From a virus: 64,000 nt of DNA. The notes under the pieces are model-generated. The model did not search any database and had not been told where the DNA came from. It saw only the letters and a program-made list of their open reading frames with translations. Location: the IMG/VR virus record IMGVR_UViG_3300028393_000001, positions 1-64,000 of that record. One strand, written 5' to 3'. The translations under genes and the position numbers were made by a program. Below, piece by piece: positions 2,072 to 63,684 of this stretch (the first letter of the stretch is position 1; every line of letters begins with the position of its first letter).

Positions 2072-5000
2072 TTTTTTAACTCTATTATGCTTGCACTTCT
2101 TTGTTGTGCGACAGAGGTAGCATTGGCGTTGGATGCAGCATAAAGATAGTATGTAGCAGTACCTGCACTTGGAGTATCTACAAAAGTATATGAGAAAGGT
2201 CCATATATAGGTGTAGGATCTATAAATTCCCATACTTGAATACCACCAATAGGAATAGTAATGTTTAAGATAGATGTATTCGTACCATTTTGGTTTCTAT
2301 ATATCTGTATATTAACTTGAGATGCAAAAGTACCGCCATTATTGCCCCCTGTATAATAGAATCCTGGACTAATTAATGCTGACATACTTACTAAAATAGG
2401 TTTACCTGTAGTAGTAATAGAGGCATTTGCAATACTTGCTCCAGTACTATAGAATATACTTCCACTAAATAATGCTCCTACTGGTGATGTTACTGCATTA
2501 TCTTGAATATTACCTGTAGTAATAATATTTGCTGCGGTTAGATTTCCACTAAATGAGCCTGAGGCAGCTGATAGAGTACCACTAAAGGTTCCGGTTGCTG
2601 CTGACAAGGCACCTGAAAAGGTTCCGGTTGCTGACTGTAACTCACCTCCAAAATAGGCATCTCCTGCACTAGTTATAGAAAACCTAGTAGTACCAGTTTT
2701 TCTACCTACTATGCCATTAGGTCCTATAAATATTCCAGTATCTGGAACACCTGTAGCAGCATTTATTGCACCTACTACAATTGCTCCATCTGTACCAAAG
2801 CTAACTTTAGCACTTAGCGTATCATTAGCCGATTTACTAAGCTTAGTATTAGCATTAGCATTTGCGGCTGTAGCTGCATCATAAGCTGAATCAGCTTTTG
2901 CCTGTGCAGTAGCAGCATTTGATATAGCTGTAGCTGCACTTGCAGTTGCACTATTAGCAGTTGATTGAGCTGTAGCGGCATTTGCAGCAGCAGTATCTGC
3001 AGCTACTTGTGCAGCATATGCTTCAGTAATGTCTGTAACACGTACATTTTGAAACTCTACTCTGCCACCACCCGTACTAGGATATCCTAATATAATATGT
3101 GCGGCAGCTTTTACTGTACCAGAATATAAACTATTAGGTGCAAAATCTGAAGTAAAAGTTTGAAAACTAGTAGTTAAAGAAGATGCAACACTCCAAGCTG
3201 CATTAGTATAAGCACCCCAAGTATATTGTGAGTTACCATTTATATCATAATTTAGTAAGCCTAAATATACAGTACCTGAGGTAGCTCCAGCAGTTTTACG
3301 TATATATGCAGTTACTCTATATCTTCTAGTACGATCAACTATAAACTGTTTTGACTCAGCTAAATGTTCTCCGGTACTGCCTACAATAGCTGTTGTACCT
3401 GATAATCCACCACTAATTGTAGCAATATAAGCCGCTGGCCAAATAACAGGATCACTACAAGTAGGATCATAGTTAAGCACATTAGAAGCTGCAGCTGCTG
3501 TATCCGCAGCTTTTTGTGCGGCAACGGCCGCGGCTTGAGCTGTTACGGCTGCAGTTTGAGCAGTATTGGCTACTGCTATAGCTGCAGTTTGAGCTGCAGT
3601 AGCTTTAGTTGAAGCATCAGTAGCAGCAGCAGCTATAGCATTCGCCTGAGCAGCAGCAGATTTATTTGTAGCATCTGATGCTGCATTATTTGCAGCAGTT
3701 TGAGCAGCTGCAGCTACTGTAGCCGCATTAGCAGCATTAGTAACTGCAGTATTAGCAGTTGATTGAGCCGTGGACGCAGCAGATGCTGCATTAGCTGCAG
3801 CAGTAGCTGCATTAGCAGCAGCAGTGGCTGCAGTATCCGCTGCATCTGCTGCAGCTTGTGCTTCAGTTATATCATACCATTTAAAACCTTGAATTTCCCA
3901 GTAGCCTGCATTACCAGGATAACTACCACCACCATTGTAACTACCTAACCAGTCAGGTTGTATGTATTTTACATTTGCTTGCCATGTAGTAATACTATTC
4001 CAATAAGATTCGTATAGTCGCCAATCAGTATGCGGTGTTACACCTGACGGATTATATGGACTTCTTCCACCATTAGTATCACAAGGAGTACCCAAATTAT
4101 CTTTAAACTGTCGAAGAGTAAAATATAGTATGCCATTAGTACCTGATGCAGCTCTAGCCCAGAATCTAATTTTAAATTTTCTTGCTGTATCTAGGGGGTG
4201 ATATATGCCATCATTGTAAAAAGTACTATTAACAGACCTAGCTACCGTATTACCCTCTTTACCATCTGTAATTGTCTGAATATTTGCACCGGGCCAGTAC
4301 TGTACATCAAGTGCCAGGGAGGGGCCACTTTCCATAACTGCATTAGACCTAGCTATCATAGCAGTATTAGCTGCAGTTTGTGCAGCATTAGCTTTAGCAG
4401 TAGCATCAGCAGCAGCTGTAGCAGCAGCAGCATTAGCTTTAGCAGTAGCATCACTAGCAGCAGTTGTAGTTGCCGACGTAACAGCTGCATTAGCCTTAGT
4501 AGTAGCATCACTAGCAGCAGTTGTAGTTGCCGACGTAACAGCTGCATTAGCCTTAGTAGTAGCATCACTAGCAGCAGTTGCTATTGCTGTACTATTATTA
4601 ATATCATCAGGAACTGTAGTAGCCGAAAGTAAGGTTGCTCCTGCAGCGTTAAATACGCTACCACCTTTTAAAGTTAAAACTCCTGTACTACTATCAAAAG
4701 CTAGTGAAGATGAGTTATCTGCATTACCGATTCTGAACTTTGCATTGCCGCTATCATTACCTAAGAAGAATCCTGCATTAGTAGCATTTGCAAAAGTTGA
4801 TTTACCTGACCACAATGCTCCGCTGGAAGCTATTGATACAACACCTAAATTTGCTGAAAGTGCTGATAGGCTACCTACTTTTAAGTTACTTAGGTAGGGT
4901 ATGCCCCAAGTTATATTAGTAGTATTAGCACTATATATACCATCGCTTTGGTACATATACTGACCATCGGTTAAGGTAGCAGTAGCAGTAGCAGACCAAC

Positions 5001-34108: not shown

Positions 34109-34164
34109 ATGGTCGCTTCAAGCGACCATTATCATTTTGACTACTATCGCCTGGGGCTGGTCAA
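34109..34164. repeat. Intergenic element copy 3 (promoter part degenerate)
   Basis: Palindrome ATGGTCGCTTCAAGCGACCAT at 34109-34129, followed by TATCATTTTG. Confidence 0.8.
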
Positions 34165-34214
34165 TAGAAAAATTCAATCGCAAAACCTGGCCGTGTTCAT
34201 GCTATAATTCGCCT

Positions 34215-34688
34215 ATGAAAAACATTATCATATTTGACCTAGACGAAACTGTCATAAATTCGTCACATCGCACACCTAATAACCCTGATGGCACTCTAAA
34301 TTTAGATGCCTATATTCGGTTACATAATCCCGAAAATGTCGCAAAAGATACATTATTGCCAATTGCACAATTAATGCGTGCTCGGTATGCAATGGGCGAT
34401 TATATCATTGTTTTGACTGCTCGCGATATGAAACCATGCGATTATCAATTCTTAAATGATTACAATTTGCCTTATCATAAAATAATGTCGCGTGACCAAG
34501 CAACGGCAAAGCATTACAAAATGAAAGACGGCGAATATAAAATGCGCTGGATTAAACCATTCTTAAATTTAAAACAATTTGCAGGTCGGCAAGTTGTTAT
34601 GTTCGATGATGCTAAACCCGTAAAATCAGCACTCAGAAAATTATTTCCTGTTTTATGTGCTCACAAAGTAAATGCACGTTTTGCGTGA
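34215..34688 (+). CDS. HAD-superfamily phosphatase / nucleotidase
   Basis: IIFDLDETV (motif I), VLTAR (II), K (III) and MFDD (IV). Start ATG 34215. Confidence 0.85.
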   Translation: MKNIIIFDLDETVINSSHRTPNNPDGTLNLDAYIRLHNPENVAKDTLLPIAQLMRARYAMGDYIIVLTARDMKPCDYQFLNDYNLPYHKIMSRDQATAKHYKMKDGEYKMRWIKPFLNLKQFAGRQVVMFDDAKPVKSALRKLFPVLCAHKVNARFA

Positions 34689-35712: not shown

Positions 35713-36342
35713 ATGATTAAATCTATCGGCGATAATTATGTGAGATTCGCAAAATCTGATTTTTCAGAATTACGGCGTCAATTGTCAATTCTTGAAGGTT
35801 ATATTTTTGGCAAGAATAAATCTGCAATGACTGCGGATTATTGGGGCGTATGCGAAGAAGGTGGCGAAGAAGATACCATTGTCAAATTGGCAGATGGTTT
35901 GACGGGTAAACCCTTGGGCATTACTTGGCAAAAAATCGTGAAACATTTTCCTGCACTAATTGCAGAATTAGACAAGCATGGTTTGCACTACTATATCGGC
36001 AAAAATTATGTTGGTAATTGGGGCGTTCATCGTCATATTTATGATGAATCTTCAACAATGAATTTGTGCCTGCTAGTAAACGGCAATAATGGCGGGACTG
36101 TTAACTTTCACGAATTTGACAATGATTCAGAATTTTTTGATGAATTGTCCGATGACCATATTTTCGATTTGCATCATGCATCGTTCGAAGAAGGAACAAT
36201 TACAGAATCGGTAAAGATTAAAGACGGCGACTGCTTCTCTTTTAATACTGGTCAATGGCACTCGCACATTGTCCAAGGCGAAAAAGCAGAATTATTTTTG
36301 CTACACTTTCGTGATGCCACTTCTGTACATGATTTAGCATAA
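35713..36342 (+). CDS. Hypothetical protein, possible cupin/2OG-Fe(II)-type double-stranded beta-helix
   Basis: HRH motif early and FNT..WHS late, typical of DSBH metal sites. Confidence 0.5.
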   Translation: MIKSIGDNYVRFAKSDFSELRRQLSILEGYIFGKNKSAMTADYWGVCEEGGEEDTIVKLADGLTGKPLGITWQKIVKHFPALIAELDKHGLHYYIGKNYVGNWGVHRHIYDESSTMNLCLLVNGNNGGTVNFHEFDNDSEFFDELSDDHIFDLHHASFEEGTITESVKIKDGDCFSFNTGQWHSHIVQGEKAELFLLHFRDATSVHDLA

Positions 36343-36381
36343 AACAAGGGTTGCCAAATTGGCAACCCTCTTTTTTCTATA

Positions 36382-36460
36382 ATGGTCGCTTTAAGCGACC
36401 ATTGTCATTTTGGCAAGGGGCTGGCGCCAAAATTTTACTCTAACCCTGGCCCTTTGTCAA
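36382..36460. repeat. Intergenic element copy 5
   Basis: Palindrome 36382-36402 and minus-strand TTGACA-N17-TAAAAT at 36432-36460. Confidence 0.85.
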
Positions 36461-36596
36461 TAGGTGTTTACCCCTATGTTGTATTTTCACAAAAATAAAA
36501 AATAACTTGAATTCCTGGCCTTTTGTCTATATAATAGAGGCTTAGCAGGCAGTAAAGGGAAACTGTAAAAAATCCCTGATTCTCTTGGAGTGTACT

Positions 36597-36923
36597 ATGG
36601 CAGAAAAAGCCGTCAATTATACCGCAGAACAAACTGCGGTAATGGTGTCCGATTACCAGTCGGGTGTAGGTGTGGAACAAATCGCTTTGTCGCTTGGCAA
36701 ATCGGTGCGTTCGGTGGTTGCGAAATTGTCTCGCGAAAAAGTATATGTTGCCAAAACGTATACTACCAAAACGGGCGAGGCCGTTGCCAAAAAGGATGCC
36801 GTTGCAGACGCAATCGGCGCGGTGCTCAAGCTCACTGAGGCTGAGACCGAATCCTTGACAAAAGCCAATAAAACGGCTTTGGCTAAAATTTTTGCGGCGC
36901 TTGCCAATAGCAAGCCCATGTAA
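36597..36923 (+). CDS. T5 A2/D3-like DNA-binding protein, paralog 2
   Basis: Closely similar to 32817-33200. GGAG RBS before ATG 36597. Confidence 0.7.
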   Translation: MAEKAVNYTAEQTAVMVSDYQSGVGVEQIALSLGKSVRSVVAKLSREKVYVAKTYTTKTGEAVAKKDAVADAIGAVLKLTEAETESLTKANKTALAKIFAALANSKPM

Positions 36924-37004
36924 AATTTGGCAATGAAAGCCCGCTTAGGCGGGTTTTCTTTTTCCGCAATAGTTGCCTTTTTGGTAATGGTCACCAGGGT
37001 GATA

Positions 37005-37217
37005 ATGGTCGCTTCAGGCGACCACTATTTTTGCGAATCGTTGCCTTTTTGGCGACTACCACTAAATCGATAACGGTCGCTTCAAGCGACCGTTATTTTC
37101 GCATGCTTAAAGCATGCGCCAGTGGCTGCGCCAGTGGTCATATGAAATTCTGCTACCTCGTGTGCCCTGCGCCAGTGGCTGCGCCAAATTATAACAGAAA
37201 GACTGAGGGCGTGTCAA
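37005..37217. repeat. Intergenic element copy 6 (two palindromes, TGCGCCAGTGG repeats, leftward promoter)
   Basis: Palindromes at 37005-37024 and 37070-37096. Minus-strand TTGACA-N18-TATAAT at 37188-37217. Confidence 0.8.
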
Positions 37218-37381
37218 GTAAATAATTTCTTACTTGAACCTGGTAGTCGGTTCCGCTATAATAATTACTTAGACAGGCAGATAGGGCCAAACGGGTACAA
37301 GAAGCGCAAAATTTCTTATTTGACTCTCAGCCCCTAATGCCTTATAATTTATTCATAAACAAACAAACCAAAGGAAGCAAA

Positions 37382-37693
37382 ATGACCGCAAAAATCGTAA
37401 ACTACACCGCAGACCAAGTTGAGAAGTTGGTCGCAGACTACCAGTCGGGCCAATCGGTCGAGATGATTGCTGACAGCCTAGGCAAGTCGGTGCGCTCGGT
37501 TGTGGCTAAGCTCAGTCGTGAAGGCGTGTACCAAGCTAGGAGCTACGTCTCTAAGACTGGTGCAAAGCCTGTTAAAAAGGACCTGGTTGCTGACCAGATT
37601 GCCAATATCCTCCTGCTTACTGAAGCAGAGGCAGATAGCCTGACCAAGGCTAACAAGACCGCCCTGACTAAAATCCTGGCTGGCTTGCAGTAA
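37382..37693 (+). CDS. T5 A2/D3-like DNA-binding protein, paralog 3
   Basis: Same family (GKSVRSVVAKLSREGVY). AAGGA RBS before ATG 37382. Confidence 0.7.
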   Translation: MTAKIVNYTADQVEKLVADYQSGQSVEMIADSLGKSVRSVVAKLSREGVYQARSYVSKTGAKPVKKDLVADQIANILLLTEAEADSLTKANKTALTKILAGLQ

Positions 37694-37724
37694 ACGCCGC
37701 AGTTTAGGGTCAAGAAATATTCAC

Positions 37725-37753
37725 TTGAATCATGACCCTAAACCTTGTATAAT
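37725..37753 (+). promoter_or_regulatory. sigma70-type promoter of the large non-coding transcript
   Basis: TTGAAT-N17-TATAAT, overlapped by the inverted repeat GTTTAGGGTCA/TGACCCTAAAC. Confidence 0.75.
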
Positions 37754-37760
37754 AGATTTA

Positions 37761-38468
37761 TGATTAGGCGATAACATAATAAAAATTATAATTCGCCGAC
37801 TCATAATGCAGGAATCGGAAAAGTTAGTAGCTGGTTCGATGCCAGCCCCGTCATCTTAGGGTGCCGGGTATGCTTATGTAGGTAAAGCGACCACTTCCAG
37901 CCTGCAGAGAGGTACCGATCCTCCAAAAACGGCTGTGGTTGGGGGTAACATCTGAAGATAGGAACCCTGGGGTTACTAACACCATCATGAAAAGTTAGGG
38001 GAGAAAGAACTTCCGATCAAATACAGCTATCATCTAACAAAGATCTGGGTTTCATCCAGCCATGTAGGTATGGACTCCTACTAGCGCACGGACTTATACA
38101 CGTAGAGTCATAAAATATACGCGGTCGAATAGCCTATGTTACAGGCTTGACTAGGCAACTTTGAAGCATACTCCAGCTAACCACTGGCTAAGGCGCTCAG
38201 GTTTAGGGTCAGGTAAGGGGTGTGGTGCCCTGAGCCAACATGGAGAGTACAATGACAGTAACTATCCCAAACAAAAAACTGTTACTGAGGAAACCAGCAG
38301 AGAAAGGCAGTATGTAAGCTCCGGCTGTGTACGTTCTCTATAGGATAACCGATTAAAATTAGCACAGTTAGATAAGCTCTGACGTTCTCTACTACCATAT
38401 AACCCCTGACAAGGTTGCGGCTAGAGGCTCACCTTACGACTGTAGGCCTGTCAAGCCTTAGCTAATCA
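37761..38468 (+). ncRNA. Putative large structured non-coding RNA (~710 nt)
   Basis: Own promoter and terminator, no credible ORF, complementary 5'/3' ends, a T-loop hairpin and many nested helices. Confidence 0.65.
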
Positions 38469-38471
38469 ACT

Positions 38472-38505
38472 AGCCCCTACGGAGTCATGCCCGTAGGGGC
38501 TTTTT
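38472..38505 (+). terminator. Rho-independent terminator
   Basis: AGCCCCTACGG-loop-CCGTAGGGGCT followed by TTTT. Confidence 0.85.
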
Positions 38506-38546
38506 GTTGCTTAAAAATAAAGAACCTGCAGAATTCTGGACGTCCG

Positions 38547-38583
38547 GCGCCAAAATTATACAGTGCCTGAGTGAGTTTGTCAA
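38547..38583 (-). promoter_or_regulatory. Leftward promoter of the repeated GCGCCAAAATTATA class
   Basis: TTGACA-N17-TATAAT-TTTGGCGC on the minus strand. Confidence 0.75.
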
Positions 38584-38823
38584 GTGTGGATTCCTCATCG
38601 TCTGAAGTGCCGCTGAATACAAGTCTGTTTTTTAAGGTGCCCTCTAATAGGTAGTCTGTTAATGAAACTCATAGGTTTTGTTTTTAAAAATTAGTGTAAC
38701 CTCTAGGTTCTGACCCTAAGCTGCCCAAATCAGGGCCCAGTTGCCCCTGAGTGCCCGAAATTAGCTTAATCTGACATAATTCGAGAAACCTGCGGAAATT
38801 TAGACATTTAGGACTTTAAAACG

Positions 38824-38855
38824 AAAAAAAGCCCCCTACTTTGACATAGGGGGCT
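38824..38855 (-). terminator. Terminator of the leftward early operon
   Basis: AGCCCCCTA-loop-TAGGGGGCT plus T-tract on the minus strand. Confidence 0.8.
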
Positions 38856-38862
38856 AATTGGC

Positions 38863-39165
38863 CTAATTTAGGGTCAGTTTCTTCTCAATTAAGGCTAAAA
38901 CTGACTTATTTACCTTCTCCAGCGATTCAAGCATATCCGAATTTACATCTAGTAGCTTAGCGATGCGCTCTATATATTCGTCCTTCTTCACAGGAACTTC
39001 ACCACGCTTGGTCAAGTACTCCTTCTTTTTGTACACGCCCAGACTGCTTAGCTTAGCGATGACTGATCTTTCTGGAACGCCCAGACCCTCAGCTAAAGCA
39101 GACACTGGCACTCCGGCCAAGTAATCCGCTTGTAATTTCTTTGTTGTTAGTTCGTCGTATTTCAC
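38863..39165 (-). CDS. T5 A2/D3-like DNA-binding protein, paralog 4
   Basis: RSVIAKLSSLGVY...PVKKDEYI..IA...LESLEK.NK. Confidence 0.65.
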   Translation of the reverse strand: MKYDELTTKKLQADYLAGVPVSALAEGLGVPERSVIAKLSSLGVYKKKEYLTKRGEVPVKKDEYIERIAKLLDVNSDMLESLEKVNKSVLALIEKKLTLN

Positions 39166-39168
39166 TGC

Positions 39169-40035
39169 TTATTCCCAAGGTAATTTAGTTAGGGTAGTCC
39201 ACTTGGCTACTGGTTCTGTTTTGATAAGAGGTTCTGGGTGACTATCCCAATTTAAGGGATCACAGATCATGTCTTGATGTCTAAGGTCTGGATGACAGAC
39301 CCAACACTGTGTAATCATTAGTCTTGATAGCTTATTAAGTAAGCCAATCTCGGAATCATTAATACCATATAAAATCCAAGCAGCCTTAGGGTCTCTGCTG
39401 GTACCTTCACGAGGGCCTGATCGGACTAGGAGTCCTTCCTGGCGCAGCCTTAGTAACTCACCTATCTCGATCTCAGGCCACTCGGTGATACAGGCTTCAG
39501 CTAAGTCTTCTGGCATTACAGCCTCTAAACCTTCACGAGACCACTTAGAGTAGGGCACTCCCTGATAACGCTTAATTCCAGCTAAGATAAGTGGAGTTAA
39601 TGAGGAGAATTCTGGTTGTGCAATCTGTTTAGGCACTAGCTTGCTACGAGGTAATCTGCAGGCTAAAAACCAGCATCCTCGACTAAACTCTGACCCTAAG
39701 TTGAGCTTAGCTGTGCTTCTTGGGTCTACTAAACCATCTTTATACACTAAAGTCCATTGACCAAAATAGTGTAAGAGCTGGTCTAAGAACCAGCTAGACT
39801 GGCTAGCAAGTCCTACGGAGTCAGCTAGTTGAGCTAAGATAAGTGGGTTAGCCGTGTTAAAGGCTTGGATCGGCCAAGCCGTTAAATCCCGTTTTTTGCC
39901 TCGCGGCAGCTTATCGGGGGTGGGAATTTCAGTTCTATTTTGCATTTTTAAGATTAATTTTAGCTTTTTAAAATGGGATTTCTCCAACTTAGATGGAGGA
40001 ACAGGGGGACCCTCAATTGCAGACGGTTGCTGCAA
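39169..40035 (-). CDS. Conserved T5-like hypothetical protein (start uncertain, possibly 39945)
   Basis: Long ORF with blocks such as F.SL.P..LA..K...G..Y..W and LM..Q.WV.HP.L, which I recall from T5-like phages. Promoter TTGACT-N17-TATAAT upstream near 40138-40166. Confidence 0.55.
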   Translation of the reverse strand: MQQPSAIEGPPVPPSKLEKSHFKKLKLILKMQNRTEIPTPDKLPRGKKRDLTAWPIQAFNTANPLILAQLADSVGLASQSSWFLDQLLHYFGQWTLVYKDGLVDPRSTAKLNLGSEFSRGCWFLACRLPRSKLVPKQIAQPEFSSLTPLILAGIKRYQGVPYSKWSREGLEAVMPEDLAEACITEWPEIEIGELLRLRQEGLLVRSGPREGTSRDPKAAWILYGINDSEIGLLNKLSRLMITQCWVCHPDLRHQDMICDPLNWDSHPEPLIKTEPVAKWTTLTKLPWE

Positions 40036-40282
40036 ACATATCCTGTTGCTTCAAAAAATGGGATTTTTGTGTACGAACAGGGGTTTGCGCTGTCTGTTGA
40101 GGCCCCCCGTTGTACTGTATTCTTTGAATATACAATAATTATATCACACTTTTTTTCATAAGTCAACTACTTTTTTAAGCAAGGGTGAAAATTTACTAGA
40201 ATATGACCAGGATAGTGGGAGATTAACTTATTGAGGAAGGGTTCCCTTTGTAGGAATTCCCTCCGATGGCGGCGGTTTAGGG

Positions 40283-41170
40283 TCAACTAATTGCTGCTTG
40301 CTCTAGTAGTTGACGATGCTGAATCCATGACCTGAAGTTAGCAGACCACAGGGTGTTGAGCACGTCCATATGAGTCACGCCCTTTTCAACATCTAGGAAC
40401 GAGCCTGAGCGCATAGGAGTTGCCTGATGCTCGAATGGACTCGCATGCCAAGGACGTGCTTTTAACAGTCGTTTAGCTATACGTTCAGCTTTCTCTAGGC
40501 TTCGGTCTTGAAGTCGGTAACTTACCTGAGCACAGCAACTAGCTGAGATTAAACGTGCAGAGGCACGATCTAAGATGGTATCATCACCATAAAAAATTTG
40601 TCCAGACTCATCCTGACGGCGAGTCACATAGGGAACGTGCCAGTCACCTGCGTGTAGTTGCAGGGGCTTGCTTTCCAGAAATGCTTGACCCATTACCTTA
40701 GCTAGGGTTTGTATTTCCGGCTGAGCGTCTTCATGATCTCGCAATTCAAAAAAGTTCGCCCATTCAGTAGCTGTTAGGACTACACGAATCATCTGAAAAG
40801 GCTCAGTGACTCTGTTAACTATCTGCTTGTGAAGACCTAAACCCTTTAAGGTCTCTGCGTAGTCTAAGGCTGAGTAGCGTGCTGCATTCCAGTAGGTAAC
40901 AGCAACTTGGGTATCATCAATCTCCTCACGAGCCTGCATACCTGATTGCGCTCGGCCCCAGAATACAGGCTCTGCTGGGTTTGCGCTGACTAGCTGAAGC
41001 ATATCATCAACTGGTACAGCTCTTGAACTGGCAGAGTTTCTAGAGAACTGACGATGCGTAAGTACTTCAGCGTGGATAAAGCGAGGATACTCTAACTCCA
41101 GGGTAGTGATACGAACTCCGTTTGCTATGGAGTCTTGAACTACATTAGCGGTAATATTAGTTGTTTTCAT
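40283..41170 (-). CDS. thyX: Flavin-dependent thymidylate synthase (phage type)
   Basis: YPRFIHAE..THR.FSRNSASSR, HKQ..NR..EPF, NFFELR...AQPEI and HASPFEHQA motifs. Confidence 0.88.
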   Translation of the reverse strand: MKTTNITANVVQDSIANGVRITTLELEYPRFIHAEVLTHRQFSRNSASSRAVPVDDMLQLVSANPAEPVFWGRAQSGMQAREEIDDTQVAVTYWNAARYSALDYAETLKGLGLHKQIVNRVTEPFQMIRVVLTATEWANFFELRDHEDAQPEIQTLAKVMGQAFLESKPLQLHAGDWHVPYVTRRQDESGQIFYGDDTILDRASARLISASCCAQVSYRLQDRSLEKAERIAKRLLKARPWHASPFEHQATPMRSGSFLDVEKGVTHMDVLNTLWSANFRSWIQHRQLLEQAAIS

Positions 41171-41970: not shown

Positions 41971-42171
41971 TCATTGTTCAACTCCAAAGTGTTCCATAAT
42001 CTCACCCATCAATGCGTAGGCCTTATGGTTGTAACCTATACCTAAACATTCTCTTACAATCAACTCGGCGAACTTTTCTTGATCCAATGTCATAATCGGT
42101 GTGTAGCCCCCATCTGTGTAGTACGCAACCTTTTGTGCCTGTTCAGCAAGTTTTCGAATTCGTTCGTTCAT
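41971..42171 (-). CDS. Small 'MNERI..LA...FAELIV.EC...FGVE' family protein
   Basis: Family motif, paralog at 43267-43482. Confidence 0.65.
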   Translation of the reverse strand: MNERIRKLAEQAQKVAYYTDGGYTPIMTLDQEKFAELIVRECLGIGYNHKAYALMGEIMEHFGVEQ

Positions 42172-42983
42172 TCTTCAACTCCGTACACCAACCGCTCAGG
42201 TGCAGTAAAACAAAAAAAGCGTCTGTTGGTGGCTCGGCCTATGGCGCATAGGTTTAGTTTTTTTGCAATTTCATAACCCATTTCAGTAATACCACTGCGA
42301 GATATAACGATAGGCACCGCCATTTGTGCAGACTTAATAATCATCTCGCTGGTCAGTCTTCCAGTTGTGTAAAATACTCGGCCATTTACTGATATGCTAT
42401 CTTTAGGTTGTAATGCCAACCATCCGGCAATGGCATCTAATGCATTGTGTCGCCCCACATCTTCAATAAACACCAGCATGTTTTCACCTTGAAATAATGC
42501 ACAACCATGTACAGATCCAGCAGTTTTATAAATGCTGTCATTTGTGCGTATAGTATTTACAATAGCATACAACTGAGTTTGCGTGATCGAGGCTGGAGGC
42601 AATTGTATATCACTGATATTATCCATCAACTCTCCAAACATACTACCTTGCCCACAACCCGTGGTGACTGTACGTTTGGCTGTTTTCCTATTGAAATTCC
42701 TAATTCCATTATGGGTCTTTGCCGCAGCCGCCCCAACTTCCCAATCTACCGTTATTGAATCTATTTCTGCCGCAGAAGCAATCAGTCGTTGATTGAGCAA
42801 GTACCCCAACACCAACCATTCGGGATAGGCTCCTAGGGTCATCAGTGTGACAATTTCTTTTTTATCTACATAAACTGTCAGGGCACGTTCAGTAGGTATT
42901 TGTAATGTCTGCATCTCGCCGTGATGATTCAACACCGTAACGGTCCTTGTCAAGGAAACGTCGGATACTGTGATATTGTTCAT
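42168..42983 (-). CDS. fdhD: Formate dehydrogenase accessory sulfurtransferase
   Basis: TTGCGQG, G.VHGCALF, EDVGRHNA.D, TTGRLTSEM..K and SRSG.T motifs. Confidence 0.92.
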   Translation of the reverse strand: MNNITVSDVSLTRTVTVLNHHGEMQTLQIPTERALTVYVDKKEIVTLMTLGAYPEWLVLGYLLNQRLIASAAEIDSITVDWEVGAAAAKTHNGIRNFNRKTAKRTVTTGCGQGSMFGELMDNISDIQLPPASITQTQLYAIVNTIRTNDSIYKTAGSVHGCALFQGENMLVFIEDVGRHNALDAIAGWLALQPKDSISVNGRVFYTTGRLTSEMIIKSAQMAVPIVISRSGITEMGYEIAKKLNLCAIGRATNRRFFCFTAPERLVYGVEE

Positions 42984-55340: not shown

Positions 55341-55369
55341 TTGACTTTGAGTCCTCAATCCGGTATAAT
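55341..55369 (+). promoter_or_regulatory. sigma70-type promoter of the small-RNA cluster
   Basis: TTGACT-N17-TATAAT. A second promoter TTGAAT-N17-TATAAT lies at 55514-55542. Confidence 0.8.
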
Positions 55370-55376
55370 TTATTTA

Positions 55377-55504
55377 TAAACAGTCGGGAAGCCGATATGC
55401 ACAGGGGGTGCAATTAGCGTTTGTCAACGACACCTTCGACCACTACTCAGGCATTGTATAGGCCTACATCTGCGAAGTTAAGTCATAGTGGCAACGACTG
55501 TTTA
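55377..55504 (+). ncRNA. Putative stem-closed small RNA
   Basis: TAAACAGTCG/CGACTGTTTA closing helix directly after the promoter, with internal hairpins. Confidence 0.55.
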
Positions 55505-55547
55505 ATTTTTTACTTGAATTATATAGTGTTTTACTGTATAATTGATA

Positions 55548-55639
55548 TTTATAAGGGTGGAAAGCGGATGCAATTCACGGCACGCTTCCTTAATTGTGGC
55601 GAATAACTTATCCGAGCCACAGCCCAAAGCCCTCATAAA
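55548..55639 (+). ncRNA. Putative three-way-junction small RNA
   Basis: Closing TTTATAAGGG/CCCTCATAAA with internal GGAAAGCG/CGCTTCC and TGTGGC/GCCACA stems. Confidence 0.5.
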
Positions 55640-55640
55640 C

Positions 55641-55766
55641 AAAAGTTCAGACAGTTCTAGACTGGCCGGATTAGCAACTGTGCGTAGATAACCCACGACT
55701 AGTAGTGCTCGGCCGAGCACCGAAAGCGTCCATGCTACGACATTGTTAATAGTTTGCTGAACTTTT
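55641..55766 (+). ncRNA. Putative stem-closed small RNA
   Basis: AAAAGTTCAG/CTGAACTTTT closing helix with an internal GTGCTC-GGCC-GAGCAC hairpin. Confidence 0.5.
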
Positions 55767-55856
55767 CTTTATGGGTGTTATGTGTTCCCCGCCCATGATA
55801 GGGAGTAACAACTTAATTGCAGGCGAAATCACTACCTGTAGCCCACCGTAATCTTT

Positions 55857-55931
55857 GCTCGATTCGTCTATCGGTTAGGACACCAGCCTTTCACGTTGGT
55901 AAGACCGGTTCGATTCCGGTATCGAGTACCA
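55857..55931 (+). tRNA. tRNA-Glu(TTC)
   Basis: Cloverleaf, anticodon loop CTTTCAC, GTTCGATTC T-loop, encoded CCA. Confidence 0.92.
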
Positions 55932-56077
55932 AATTTCTATGTTGTTCTAGTTTGCTAGAGCACTTAGACACCCAAGATCAGACCAACAGTTAGTAATGAT
56001 AGATTATTTATAATCCGTCGAAACCTGCGGTGGCGTAACAACTGACTGAACTAGGCTGTCGCCTTGACCTAGTTCCT

Positions 56078-56222
56078 ATTATTTAGTGTTATCAGGGTAT
56101 CGTCATAGGACGCTATGACTATGCGGGCCTAACTGTGCGAGGAACAGGTCCTAATATAACTGCTAGTCGCTTGCCAGAGGAAGCACCTTTGTTGGCAAAT
56201 TGGCACGATAGCACTAAATAAT
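56078..56222 (+). ncRNA. Putative stem-closed small RNA
   Basis: 16-bp closing helix ATTATTTAGTGTTATC/GATAGCACTAAATAAT around several hairpins. Confidence 0.55.
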
Positions 56223-56378
56223 GGTAGAGAGTTAATGTTAAAAATGGGTACTCAAAATATCCGTTCTTGAAGGTTCAATTCCTTTAATTTGTAGTCAGGT
56301 GAGAAGCGTGGGCAAAGGTTAGAGATCAACTAACCGCTACAGATAATATGGTTATTAAGTAATAAAAACATAGACTCG

Positions 56379-56474
56379 CCATATATTAGCATTCTGTAAT
56401 TCAAGAGGCAGAGAAGCCCTTTAATATGGGGTGTCGTGTAGATTTCAAGTATCTACCAGAGTGCTAATATATGG
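56379..56474 (+). ncRNA. tRNA-like RNA with an extended acceptor helix
   Basis: 18-bp closing helix around D-like, anticodon-like and T-like arms. No CCA. Confidence 0.5.
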
Positions 56475-56555
56475 GAGAGTACGGGTGATATGTAAGGGTT
56501 TCTCTAAGCCCTGATGATTGGAATTCCTAAGTTAGCCAACAACTAACCCCATAAC

Positions 56556-56658
56556 TTATCCTTCTGATGAGCTTGTGAAATTCAAGCGAAACTCTAACAC
56601 AACCCGCTAGGGTCTTACCCTTTCAACCTAGTTTGAGGCGTTACGAGTCAAGGAATAA
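56556..56658 (+). ncRNA. Type I hammerhead ribozyme
   Basis: Stem I TTATCCTT/AAGGAATAA, core CTGATGA (56564-56570), stem II GCTTG/CAAGC, GAAA (56588-56591), stem III CTCTAAC/GTTA(C)GAG, GTC cleavage triplet (cut after 56649). Confidence 0.9.
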
Positions 56659-56716
56659 AAAAGATAGCCGTGTTGCCACTTATAGTATTGCGTCGCCGCT
56701 GGAACTAATTCCTCTT

Positions 56717-56750
56717 AGCCCTGTAAGGTTTGCCCTTACAGGGCTTTGCT
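56717..56750 (+). terminator. Rho-independent terminator of the small-RNA cluster
   Basis: AGCCCTGTAAGG-TTTGC-CCTTACAGGGCT followed by a T-rich tail. Confidence 0.8.
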
Positions 56751-63281: not shown

Positions 63282-63378
63282 AAATACACTACTTGCCACT
63301 TAATAAATATATGCGGAGACGTTCCGGACTGTGTCATTCCGCGGGTAACTGGGAGCACCCAGCATAGGTAGTGTGTTT
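63282..63378 (+). ncRNA. Putative stem-closed small RNA
   Basis: 13-bp closing helix AAATACACTACTT/AGGTAGTGTGTTT with a GC-rich structured interior. Confidence 0.5.
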
Positions 63379-63389
63379 TTTATTTTATA

Positions 63390-63678
63390 GTTGTATGAAG
63401 TAGACAGAAAAGTGTCTTGGACGGGGGTGCGAATCCCCCCAGGTCCACCAGAAGTATATTCGACCTCACACGCGGAGAGGTGAAATATAACAGAATATAC
63501 TTCTGATGGGCCTGCATAGTTTCGACAGGGCAAAGAGTAGGAAAATGGACAACTCGGTAGGCGATGACCGTTAATCAAGCAAAACAAGTAAACGCAAACG
63601 ACTCACAGTTCGCATTAGCAGCCTAAACACTGCTTAGGGTTTTGATAAGTTTTCCTCGTAACAGAATAAACTTATCTC
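63390..63678 (+). ncRNA. ssrA: Circularly permuted (two-piece) tmRNA
   Basis: Acceptor piece ending T-arm-CAGGTCC-A-CCA (63450), intervening hairpin, coding piece starting GGGCCTG (63508), G3:U70, tag ANDSQFALAA* (63594-63626). Confidence 0.9.
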
Positions 63679-63684
63679 AAATAC

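Follow-up and report, generated by a model that had tools for sequence, protein, structure and literature searches.

A probable uncatalogued family of large, modular structured RNAs in uncultivated freshwater phages

Only a handful of large 'ornate' RNAs have, to our knowledge, been described in bacteria and phages (OLE, GOLLD, ROOL and raiA). Each of them led to a new RNA architecture, the latest being RNA-only nanocages. Here we describe a locus on a 64,000-nucleotide (nt) stretch of DNA (hereafter the window), which comprises the first 64 kb of the 123,962-bp IMG/VR virus record IMGVR_UViG_3300028393_000001, rated 100% complete. Positions 37761–38506 (+ strand) are best explained, with good confidence, as encoding one non-coding RNA of ~745 nt that belongs to an uncatalogued family of large structured RNAs of freshwater phages. 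The closest analogues by behaviour, GOLLD and ROOL, are described in PMC12286853 as phage-encoded and often located near tRNA islands, with tRNAs sometimes placed in the GOLLD linker; GOLLD combines a conserved 3′ region with a variable 5′ region, and both RNAs form RNA-only cages.

The RNA at 37761–38506 resembles GOLLD and ROOL in being phage-encoded, in its size class (0.6–1.1 kb) and rich structure, in its association with tRNA genes and the presence, within or next to it, of a tRNA or a tRNA-like element, and in setting an invariant part beside variable modules. It differs from them in lacking any sequence or structure match to either model, in its conserved core, and in the predicted hammerhead-defined 5′ end of its relatives. 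Rfam scans were run at curated thresholds over the window and in a sensitive mode (E up to 10) on 37600–38650. At curated thresholds, the window gave only tRNAs and a permuted transfer-messenger RNA (tmRNA), all outside the large RNA, and the loci of 15 relatives likewise gave only tRNAs and tmRNA. The sensitive mode gave six matches at E ≤ 10, of which only that to YrlA was notable (RF02553 at 37806–37910; 33.0 bits, E 4.3e-5, under the curated cut-off of 69), while the rest coincided with the terminator. Models for GOLLD, ROOL, OLE, RNase P and introns gave nothing at this level. The GOLLD, ROOL and OLE models did not match relative L107 either (E ≤ 5), and the sensitive mode assigned no family to the large RNA of L107 or L108. 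A blastn search of the 821-nt region against 50,697 cultured-phage records found nothing, an empty answer that is little proof, and no description of this RNA was found in the literature, the supplements of PMC10690425 lying outside the comparison. A preliminary description of this DNA, made from the letters of the window, had proposed a large non-coding RNA of a possibly new class; conservation with covariation, the lack of a matching Rfam model and coverage by contigs from RNA libraries, all detailed below, bear this out. It would stand for a new class, within a kind already known, of large structured RNAs that are built in modules and carried by uncultivated freshwater phages.

The ~745-nt primary transcript (37761–38506, +) is delimited by a promoter and a terminator and holds no conserved open reading frame (ORF). 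A promoter/terminator scan found the sigma-70-type promoter TTGAAT-N17-TATAAT (37725–37753, +), which agrees with the consensus at 10 of 12 positions and forms an identical block in homologue L002; its −10 position would place the transcript start near 37760. The intrinsic terminator (38472–38506, +) consists of a stem of 11 pairs, 8 of them G–C (38472–38501), followed by a T run, and carries compensatory changes in L144, L123 and L105. The preliminary description had named both signals, with the strength of the terminator and the lack of a credible ORF, correctly, and the motifs that it quoted were all located where it had placed them. The longest ORF codes for 60 amino acids from a TTG start, each + frame is interrupted by 15–18 stops, and no ORF is kept across seven close homologues. 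The G+C content of 37761–38506 is 46.5% (versus 39.0% for the window), and the large RNA is single copy in the genome. The whole locus spans 1,169 bases, without an ORF of at least 75 amino acids, between a gene at 37337–37693 (+) and a convergent gene at 38863–39165 (−).

Used as an IMG/VR query, the neighbouring 118-amino-acid protein led to 76 loci in 74 records. A DNA search of these related records matched parts of the RNA in 20 (17 of 50 and 3 of 24), the most widely shared piece being window 37998–38086. A pattern of invariant core letters retrieved 37 IMG/VR stretches, which together with the window amount to 32 distinct sequences, and a metagenome scan with a second conserved 18-mer retrieved 7 stretches that include 3 further distinct full-length homologues with 84–92% identity: L145 (duplicate L140; 88%), L144 (84%) and L141 (92% over the first 485 nt). 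Synteny is kept, with a paralogue gene (+), 1.1–1.3 kb of ORF-poor DNA and a convergent paralogue (−). The core was found in five of eight near-complete related phage genomes, one of them with a weak score (23.7 bits) and one with two copies. The latter genome, G013 (locus L014/L139), carries cores at 2363–2460 and 4160–4255, 1.8 kb apart, which score 71.8 and 48.2 bits. Our covariance model of the core (R1) detected none in the closest cultured relative, Vibrio phage 234P1. The 18-mer pattern also matched 79 bacterial contigs, all at ≤26 bits with R1 versus 85.9 for the window; because this number is close to that estimated for chance and no match exceeds 26 bits, we count no cellular copy of the core as found.

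The invariant core is a 95-nt three-way junction (37995–38089, +) that occurs once in the genome (85.9 bits with R1). It was aligned over 32 distinct sequences (alignment A2), and the pattern used to collect these took no stem positions. From 5′ to 3′, the core comprises P1 (38000–38003/38010–38013) with the invariant loop AAAGAA, single-stranded AAAUACA, the first strand of the closing helix GCUA/UAGC (38026–38029/38082–38085), the invariant junction strand UCAUCUAAC..AAGA, the variable hairpin P2 (38045–38048/38056–38059), UAAUG, and P3 (38064–38068/38077–38081), which is stacked on the closing helix. This element covaries strongly across the homologues: 97.7% of the cells are paired, compared with 32–48% in slid controls, and 12 of the 15 pairs change on both sides. 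Double-change cells number 87, versus 6–15 in the slid controls, and none of 500 shuffles reaches the observed score. The closing helix has U–G in nine sequences; since G–U pairs would mismatch on the other strand, the RNA is read from the + strand, which the T-loop, the terminator and the YrlA match likewise fit. RNAalifold on seven sequences mispaired the P1 region through misalignment, and the core was read from A2 instead. The core letters GCU AUC AUC UAA were considered as a tmRNA-like tag and ruled out, as GCUA pairs with UAGC with compensatory changes.

Helices over the whole RNA were tested on an alignment of the seven close homologues (A3). The set is 92.3% paired (28–45% in slid controls), with 16 pairs changed on both sides, and RNAalifold, applied to 18 typical relatives, gave 98 predicted pairs, of which 36 are compensatory; the family is thus richly structured. 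The earlier characterization of the RNA as highly structured therefore holds by covariation but not by folding energy (z = −1.28 on the + strand, where 2 of 20 shuffles fold as well). The global fold offered with it, a 5′–3′ closure plus long-range helices, proved mostly wrong, its three helices being without compensation. The closure TGATTAG/CTAATCA shows no compensatory change, and its 3′ strand pairs with 38358–38363 instead; the long-range pairing GTATGCTT/AAGCATAC also has none, is broken at one pair in five of six relatives and takes its 5′ strand from the D-arm of the tRNA mimic described below; CTTAG/CTAAG is 56–88% paired, again with no compensatory change.

Outside the core and the mimic, the RNA is a succession of modules, all on the + strand. 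The 5′ leader forms a hairpin GGCGA/UCGCC (37767–37797) that is 100% paired in the five leader-bearing sequences, without compensatory change, and is absent in L123 and L105, which have a predicted hammerhead 5′ end. The module GGUUnnGnGUAAC...AUAGGAAC (37937–37990) is a conserved GUAAC/AGGAAC block found family-wide; immediately upstream of the core, its consensus reads ...GGTTnnGAGTAAC...GGTAGGAAC. The IMG/VR homologue nearest to the window (L002/L103) has the GGUAAC..AUAGGAAC module tandemly duplicated over 74 nt, as an insert after window ~37996, which shows the RNA evolving module by module. The middle domain (38090–38237) contains hairpins, the motif GUUUAGGGUC (38201–38210) and a GGGGUGUGGUGCCC hairpin; its first part, 38090–38165, is missing in L123 and L105, and the homologous block of typical relatives reads GUUUAGGGUCAGG..GUGGUG. 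The helix GCTCAGG/CCTGAGC, proposed earlier for this domain, is partly borne out (76% of cells paired, one compensatory pair). The hairpin CAGTAAC/GTTACTG exists as described but as an optional insert (38238–38285) found in only two of the seven sequences, and variant RNA contigs join across it. The 3′ domain is closed by the helix AUUAGC/GCUAAU (38358–38363/38461–38466), which is 100% paired in 7/7 sequences and compensatory at three of its six pairs (L141, L103). It encloses the hairpin 38407–38453, whose stem TGACA(A)GG/CCTGTCA is kept in pairing (87%) but lacks compensatory changes. A covariation scan of the typical family gave several long-range helix candidates, none of which was transferred to the window with confidence.

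Towards its 5′ end, the large RNA contains a tRNA mimic of YrlA topology (37806–37910, +), identified by the RF02553 match of 33 bits and by stems that covary in seven homologues. In 5′–3′ order, it consists of one strand of the outer stem (37807–37812/37901–37906; 85% paired, two compensatory pairs), a T-arm (37830–37846) with a TTCGA-type loop, a closed acceptor-like hairpin of 7 bp or more (37847–37868; 98% paired, four of eight pairs compensatory), a UA(U) linker, a D-arm (37872–37888) with GG in its loop and an invariant, always paired stem, and the second outer-stem strand. Seven bases of the acceptor-like stem pair with seven across a loop of 4–25 nt. The T-loop hairpin had been recognized in the preliminary description, and we find it paired in 7/7 homologues (T-stem 100%), with a C–G to G–C swap in three of them (one compensatory pair). 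The mimic has no anticodon arm and no CCA, and neither ARAGORN nor the Rfam tRNA model calls it. Only seven family members carry it; typical relatives keep the flanking GGAAAGUAGUAG block and have another, unrelated segment in its place.

The permuted layout of the mimic, with a T-arm, a loop-closed acceptor-like stem and a D-arm, and with the outer stem replacing the anticodon arm, is that of the YrlA-class Y RNAs of bacteria and phages. The differences are the score, which stays under the curated 69, the length of the whole RNA (~7 times longer), the optional status of the mimic within its family, and the lack of a Ro-binding helix or motif and of an Rsr/TROVE gene in the phage. The Ro-binding motif GNCGAAN0-1G (PMC4201824) is absent from 37761–38506, and the outer/Ro-binding helices of the model are largely deleted in the match. 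A TROVE (PF05731) search of the complete 124-kb genome returned nothing, with control genomes positive. According to PMC4201824, RNase P cuts the M. smegmatis YrlA, whose acceptor stem is 7 bp long, and this RNA acquires CCA; by analogy, RNase P cleavage at the 7-bp acceptor-like stem of the mimic is plausible. Two-piece (permuted) tmRNA also has a circularly permuted tRNA-like layout and a precursor acceptor stem closed by a loop. The large RNA differs from it in having neither CCA nor a tag frame (GCU-AUC-AUC-UAA lies in a covarying helix), and in giving no tmRNA-model or ARAGORN match.

The hammerhead consensus comprises CUGANGA, GAAA, an NUH site and three helices. A hammerhead core (CUGAYGA, a covarying stem II and GAAAC) is present in 22 of 31 relatives, on the same strand and 190–340 nt upstream of the core motif; in two of the nine that lack it, the sequence ends upstream. 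An alignment of 19 sequences, including the window copy and leaving L123 outside, has the hammerhead core columns invariant in 19/19 and the site GUC in all 19 (GUA in L123). Stems I–III are 93–100% paired (96.4% overall; 22–44% in slid controls), and seven pairs change on both sides. In the window, this element is an unannotated type I hammerhead at ~56556–56650 (+; copy at 56564), and thus not within the large RNA itself. The copies share with type I hammerheads (PMC3088659) the CUGANGA and GAAA core, the GUC triplet (one GUA), three covarying stems and an open stem I, and cleavage is predicted from these features. They differ in their scores on Rfam Hammerhead_3, which are only 17–18 bits for the relatives against a gathering score of 48.5, with no Rfam match at E ≤ 5 for the window copy, probably because stem III holds a 50–65-nt insert. 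The pattern matches CUGAAGA and CUGAGGA inside the large RNA were rejected as a second hammerhead, being without stem II.

The cut predicted for L123 and L105 falls 21 nt upstream of the T-arm, at the position taken in this phage by the promoter-proximal leader; promoter and ribozyme therefore appear as alternative starts of the same RNA. In most relatives, self-cleavage of a precursor, often one that includes a tRNA, probably generates the 5′ end of the RNA, and some relatives have a true tRNA upstream of the large RNA. The counterpart of the relatives' upstream half is here a second ORF-poor RNA locus (55341–56750, +), with consensus-like promoters at 55341–55369 and 55514–55542, a tRNA-Glu at 55857–55931, conserved structured modules, the hammerhead and a terminator at 56717–56745 (all +); apart from the tRNA, this locus gave no known RNA family. 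In 22/31 relatives, homologues of 55341–56750 immediately precede the core on its own strand; the large RNA is thus half of a more extensive RNA system connected with the tRNA cluster. The preliminary description had set the RNA apart from the tRNA cluster, a view that this comparison does not support: in 22/31 relatives, the RNA is contiguous with the tRNA and hammerhead modules that here sit in the cluster at 55.3–56.75 kb. Likewise, it is self-contained only in that it has its own promoter and terminator in this phage; in most relatives, it is the 3′ part of a longer precursor, predicted to be cleaved by the hammerhead.

Part of the stretch occurs in 24 public runs, six of which are RNA libraries. 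Four lake metatranscriptome runs were compared over 36000–40200; these carry four study codes and share one year and habitat, possibly one campaign. Contigs of the four RNA libraries together cover 37806–38433, at word depths of 9.8–284. In run X4, window-identical contigs cover 37854–38168 (depth 180) and 38170–38314 (depth 95), compared with depths of 2–14 for contigs of flanking genes. Runs X9, X10 and X23 hold contigs of an L123-type variant over 37806–38433, with depths of 9.8, 70 and 284, respectively; the contrast in X9 is small, because its flank contig has a depth of 6.5 versus 9.8. Contig depth is a poor measure, RNA libraries may contain DNA, and contigs show neither ends nor strand; we regard these contigs as good, though not conclusive, evidence for an abundant transcript. 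Flank stretches that RNA contigs leave uncovered, and the X4 contig ends at 37854 and 38314, lie at strain-variable sites and were not used as evidence. An X10 contig starts at 37815, behind 21 loose letters that we take to be sequencing adapter; at best, this start hints weakly at an RNA end close to the predicted L123-type hammerhead cut.

A 10-mer, GACCCTRAAC, recurs across the genome. There are 10 copies, of which one is at 84502 and nine are in the window (19540, 29746, 37702, 37734, 38201, 40275, 45028, 47821 and 60498; 0.14 expected). An inverted pair of the 10-mer GACCCTAAAC (37702–37711, −; 37734–37743, +) straddles the −35 hexamer of the large RNA promoter in an operator-like arrangement, and we infer that it serves as an operator. 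A sigma-70-type promoter hints at transcription by the host polymerase, which would hence be early, and its bracketing by an inverted recurrent motif suggests that this transcription is regulated. Within the large RNA, the complement of the 10-mer looks like the substrate strand of the hammerhead in relatives (..UUAGGGUC|AGGA).

Several points weigh against reading 37761–38506 as one large structured RNA with a role of its own. Carriage of the core by only five of the eight near-complete genomes indicates that it is dispensable for some relatives, and the mimic, confined to seven sequences, cannot be the essential part of the family. Folding energy is no better than that of shuffles on either strand (z = −1.28 on the + strand, −0.26 on the − strand), and the alignments leave much of the 3′ domain and the long-range architecture unsettled. 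Contigs are no proof that the 745 nt form one molecule; processing may cut the RNA into fragments. There is no evidence for oligomers, a partner or a phenotype. As for novelty, PMC10690425 reports 8,495 short candidate structures from IMG/VR, and part of the RNA may figure among them.

We tentatively favour a scaffold or particle RNA, since GOLLD and ROOL are the closest analogues by behaviour, although the mechanism is taken over by analogy and the odds are somewhat against it. The RNA would be stable and abundant, linked as in GOLLD and ROOL to the tRNA and translation module of the phage; its invariant core would bind a partner or mediate self-assembly, and the tRNA-like elbow would confer nuclease resistance or dock host tRNA-handling enzymes. 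In this phage, a promoter stands where relatives have the hammerhead, and the upstream modules lie at 55.3–56.75 kb in the tRNA cluster. A wider proposal, possible but rather doubtful, is that both loci (37.76–38.5 and 55.3–56.75 kb; fused in relatives) form a new multi-domain RNA class that gives each genome over 2 kb of conserved non-coding RNA, matured by hammerhead and tRNA or tRNA-like signals and used to remodel host translation or RNA metabolism; the core would then be a new functional module, either a GOLLD/ROOL-like assembly interface or a ligand-binding or catalytic fold. The features that set this RNA apart are a Y-RNA-style tRNA mimic in a 0.7-kb RNA without a Ro protein, the predicted ribozyme-set 5′ end in relatives, the invariant junction core and the presence of contigs among lake metatranscriptome runs. 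The RNA lends itself to cryo-EM and to ribozyme or ligand screens, and it bears on why tRNA-rich phages carry giant non-coding RNAs.

The tRNA-like domain could instead be the active part, as a decoy or tether that sequesters or recruits a host factor recognizing the tRNA elbow. This factor could be a defence nuclease that cleaves tRNAs, RNase P, a modification enzyme or, as for Y RNAs, a Ro/Rsr-type complex. Its covarying T and acceptor-like stems, invariant D-arm and 7-bp acceptor-like stem fit such a role, YrlA domains are substrates of tRNA enzymes (PMC4201824), and the 23 tRNAs and the tmRNA of the phage amount to a large investment in tRNA biology. However, the mimic is restricted to seven members and replaced by an unrelated segment in typical relatives, conservation is highest in the core rather than in the mimic, and a Ro partnership has neither a TROVE/Rsr gene nor GNCGAAN0-1G nor the Ro-binding helices, deleted in the match, to build on; we consider this explanation unlikely. 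The mimic could also mark a processing site, in which case the transcript would be a polycistronic precursor of separate small RNAs, which RNase P, acting on the mimic, and other nucleases would divide into independent pieces. The modular architecture, with modules gained, lost and duplicated, the hammerhead and tRNA processing signals of the relatives, and the 7-bp acceptor-like stem, a possible RNase P site on the precedent of PMC4201824, speak for a string of this kind. What makes it distinctly unlikely is that there is one promoter and one terminator, that a covarying helix joins 38358–38363 to 38461–38466, and that RNA contigs cross the module borders over 37806–38433, although assembled contigs are no proof of single molecules.

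Base pairing offers a different function again: GUUUAGGGUC (38201–38210) and other single-stranded blocks would pair, in trans or in cis, with phage transcripts bearing GACCCUAAAC, or would act as a sponge for a protein that binds the motif. The excess of the motif (9 copies versus 0.14 expected, 10 in the genome), its position at the RNA's own promoter, and the fact that every close and typical relative keeps its complement within the RNA are consistent with this, and typical relatives hold both orientations, which could pair, inside the RNA. Yet a scaffold of 745 nt is not required for a 10-nt match, the copies in the genome lie in either orientation with respect to local genes, and the likeness of the motif to the hammerhead substrate strand means that it may be an RNA-structure or DNA-operator element; we judge regulation by base pairing quite improbable. 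Least probable by far, and hardly credible, is that the conserved unit is DNA (an origin, an injection stop or an operator array) or the mRNA of a small protein. The region is rich in palindromes, operator-like motifs and additional promoters on either strand, and a 60-amino-acid ORF (38161–38343) stays in frame across a 45-nt net deletion; but this ORF starts with TTG, shows no evident Shine–Dalgarno sequence, is mostly lost in L123, absent in L105 and without counterpart in typical relatives, and the compensatory changes keep RNA pairs, with G–U pairs on one strand only.

The record comes from a phage that occurs, in public sequence, in freshwater metagenomes only. Its large terminase is at most 48.8% identical to those of cultured phages, the best matches being 113-kb Vibrio phages, among them 234P1, which is classified in Demerecviridae; by the large terminase alone, the phage is judged to be distantly Demerecviridae-like (T5-like). 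The terminal repeat of the record is 127 bp, which is too short to place the physical genome ends, so that the putative first-entry location given in the preliminary description finds no support; for the early action suggested there, the sigma-70-type promoter is the only hint. The tRNA cluster (55.8–69.1 kb of the genome) holds 23 tRNAs and the only tmRNA found, a two-piece (permuted) one (63336–63679, +) with the tag ANDSQFALAA; relative L113 also has a two-piece tmRNA.

The RNA locus is flanked by three paralogous proteins of 100–118 amino acids with weak GcrA/HTH-type matches (36585–36923; 37337–37693, +; 38863–39165, −). This paralogue family is abundant in IMG/VR, with 144 confirmed stretches, and its members beside the RNA are candidates for binding the recurrent 10-mer GACCCTRAAC. 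Upstream, 34137–34688 (+) encodes a HAD/PNK-phosphatase-like protein, for which no link to the large RNA was seen; among other RNA-repair functions, RtcB and a CCA-adding enzyme were not found, and the sole ligase-domain match, at 71.5 kb, was sub-threshold. Further downstream are a ThyX thymidylate synthase (40283–41170, −) and an FdhD/NarQ-family protein (42168–42983, −), the latter unusual in a phage. Just 3′ of the terminator, with no gene behind it, lies a leftward sigma-70 promoter, TTGACA-N17-TATAAT (38555–38583, −), that agrees with the consensus at 12/12 positions; motif maps place a leftward promoter at the equivalent spot in most relatives, and transcription from it may give rise to an antisense transcript or to a short RNA that terminates at the shared hairpin.

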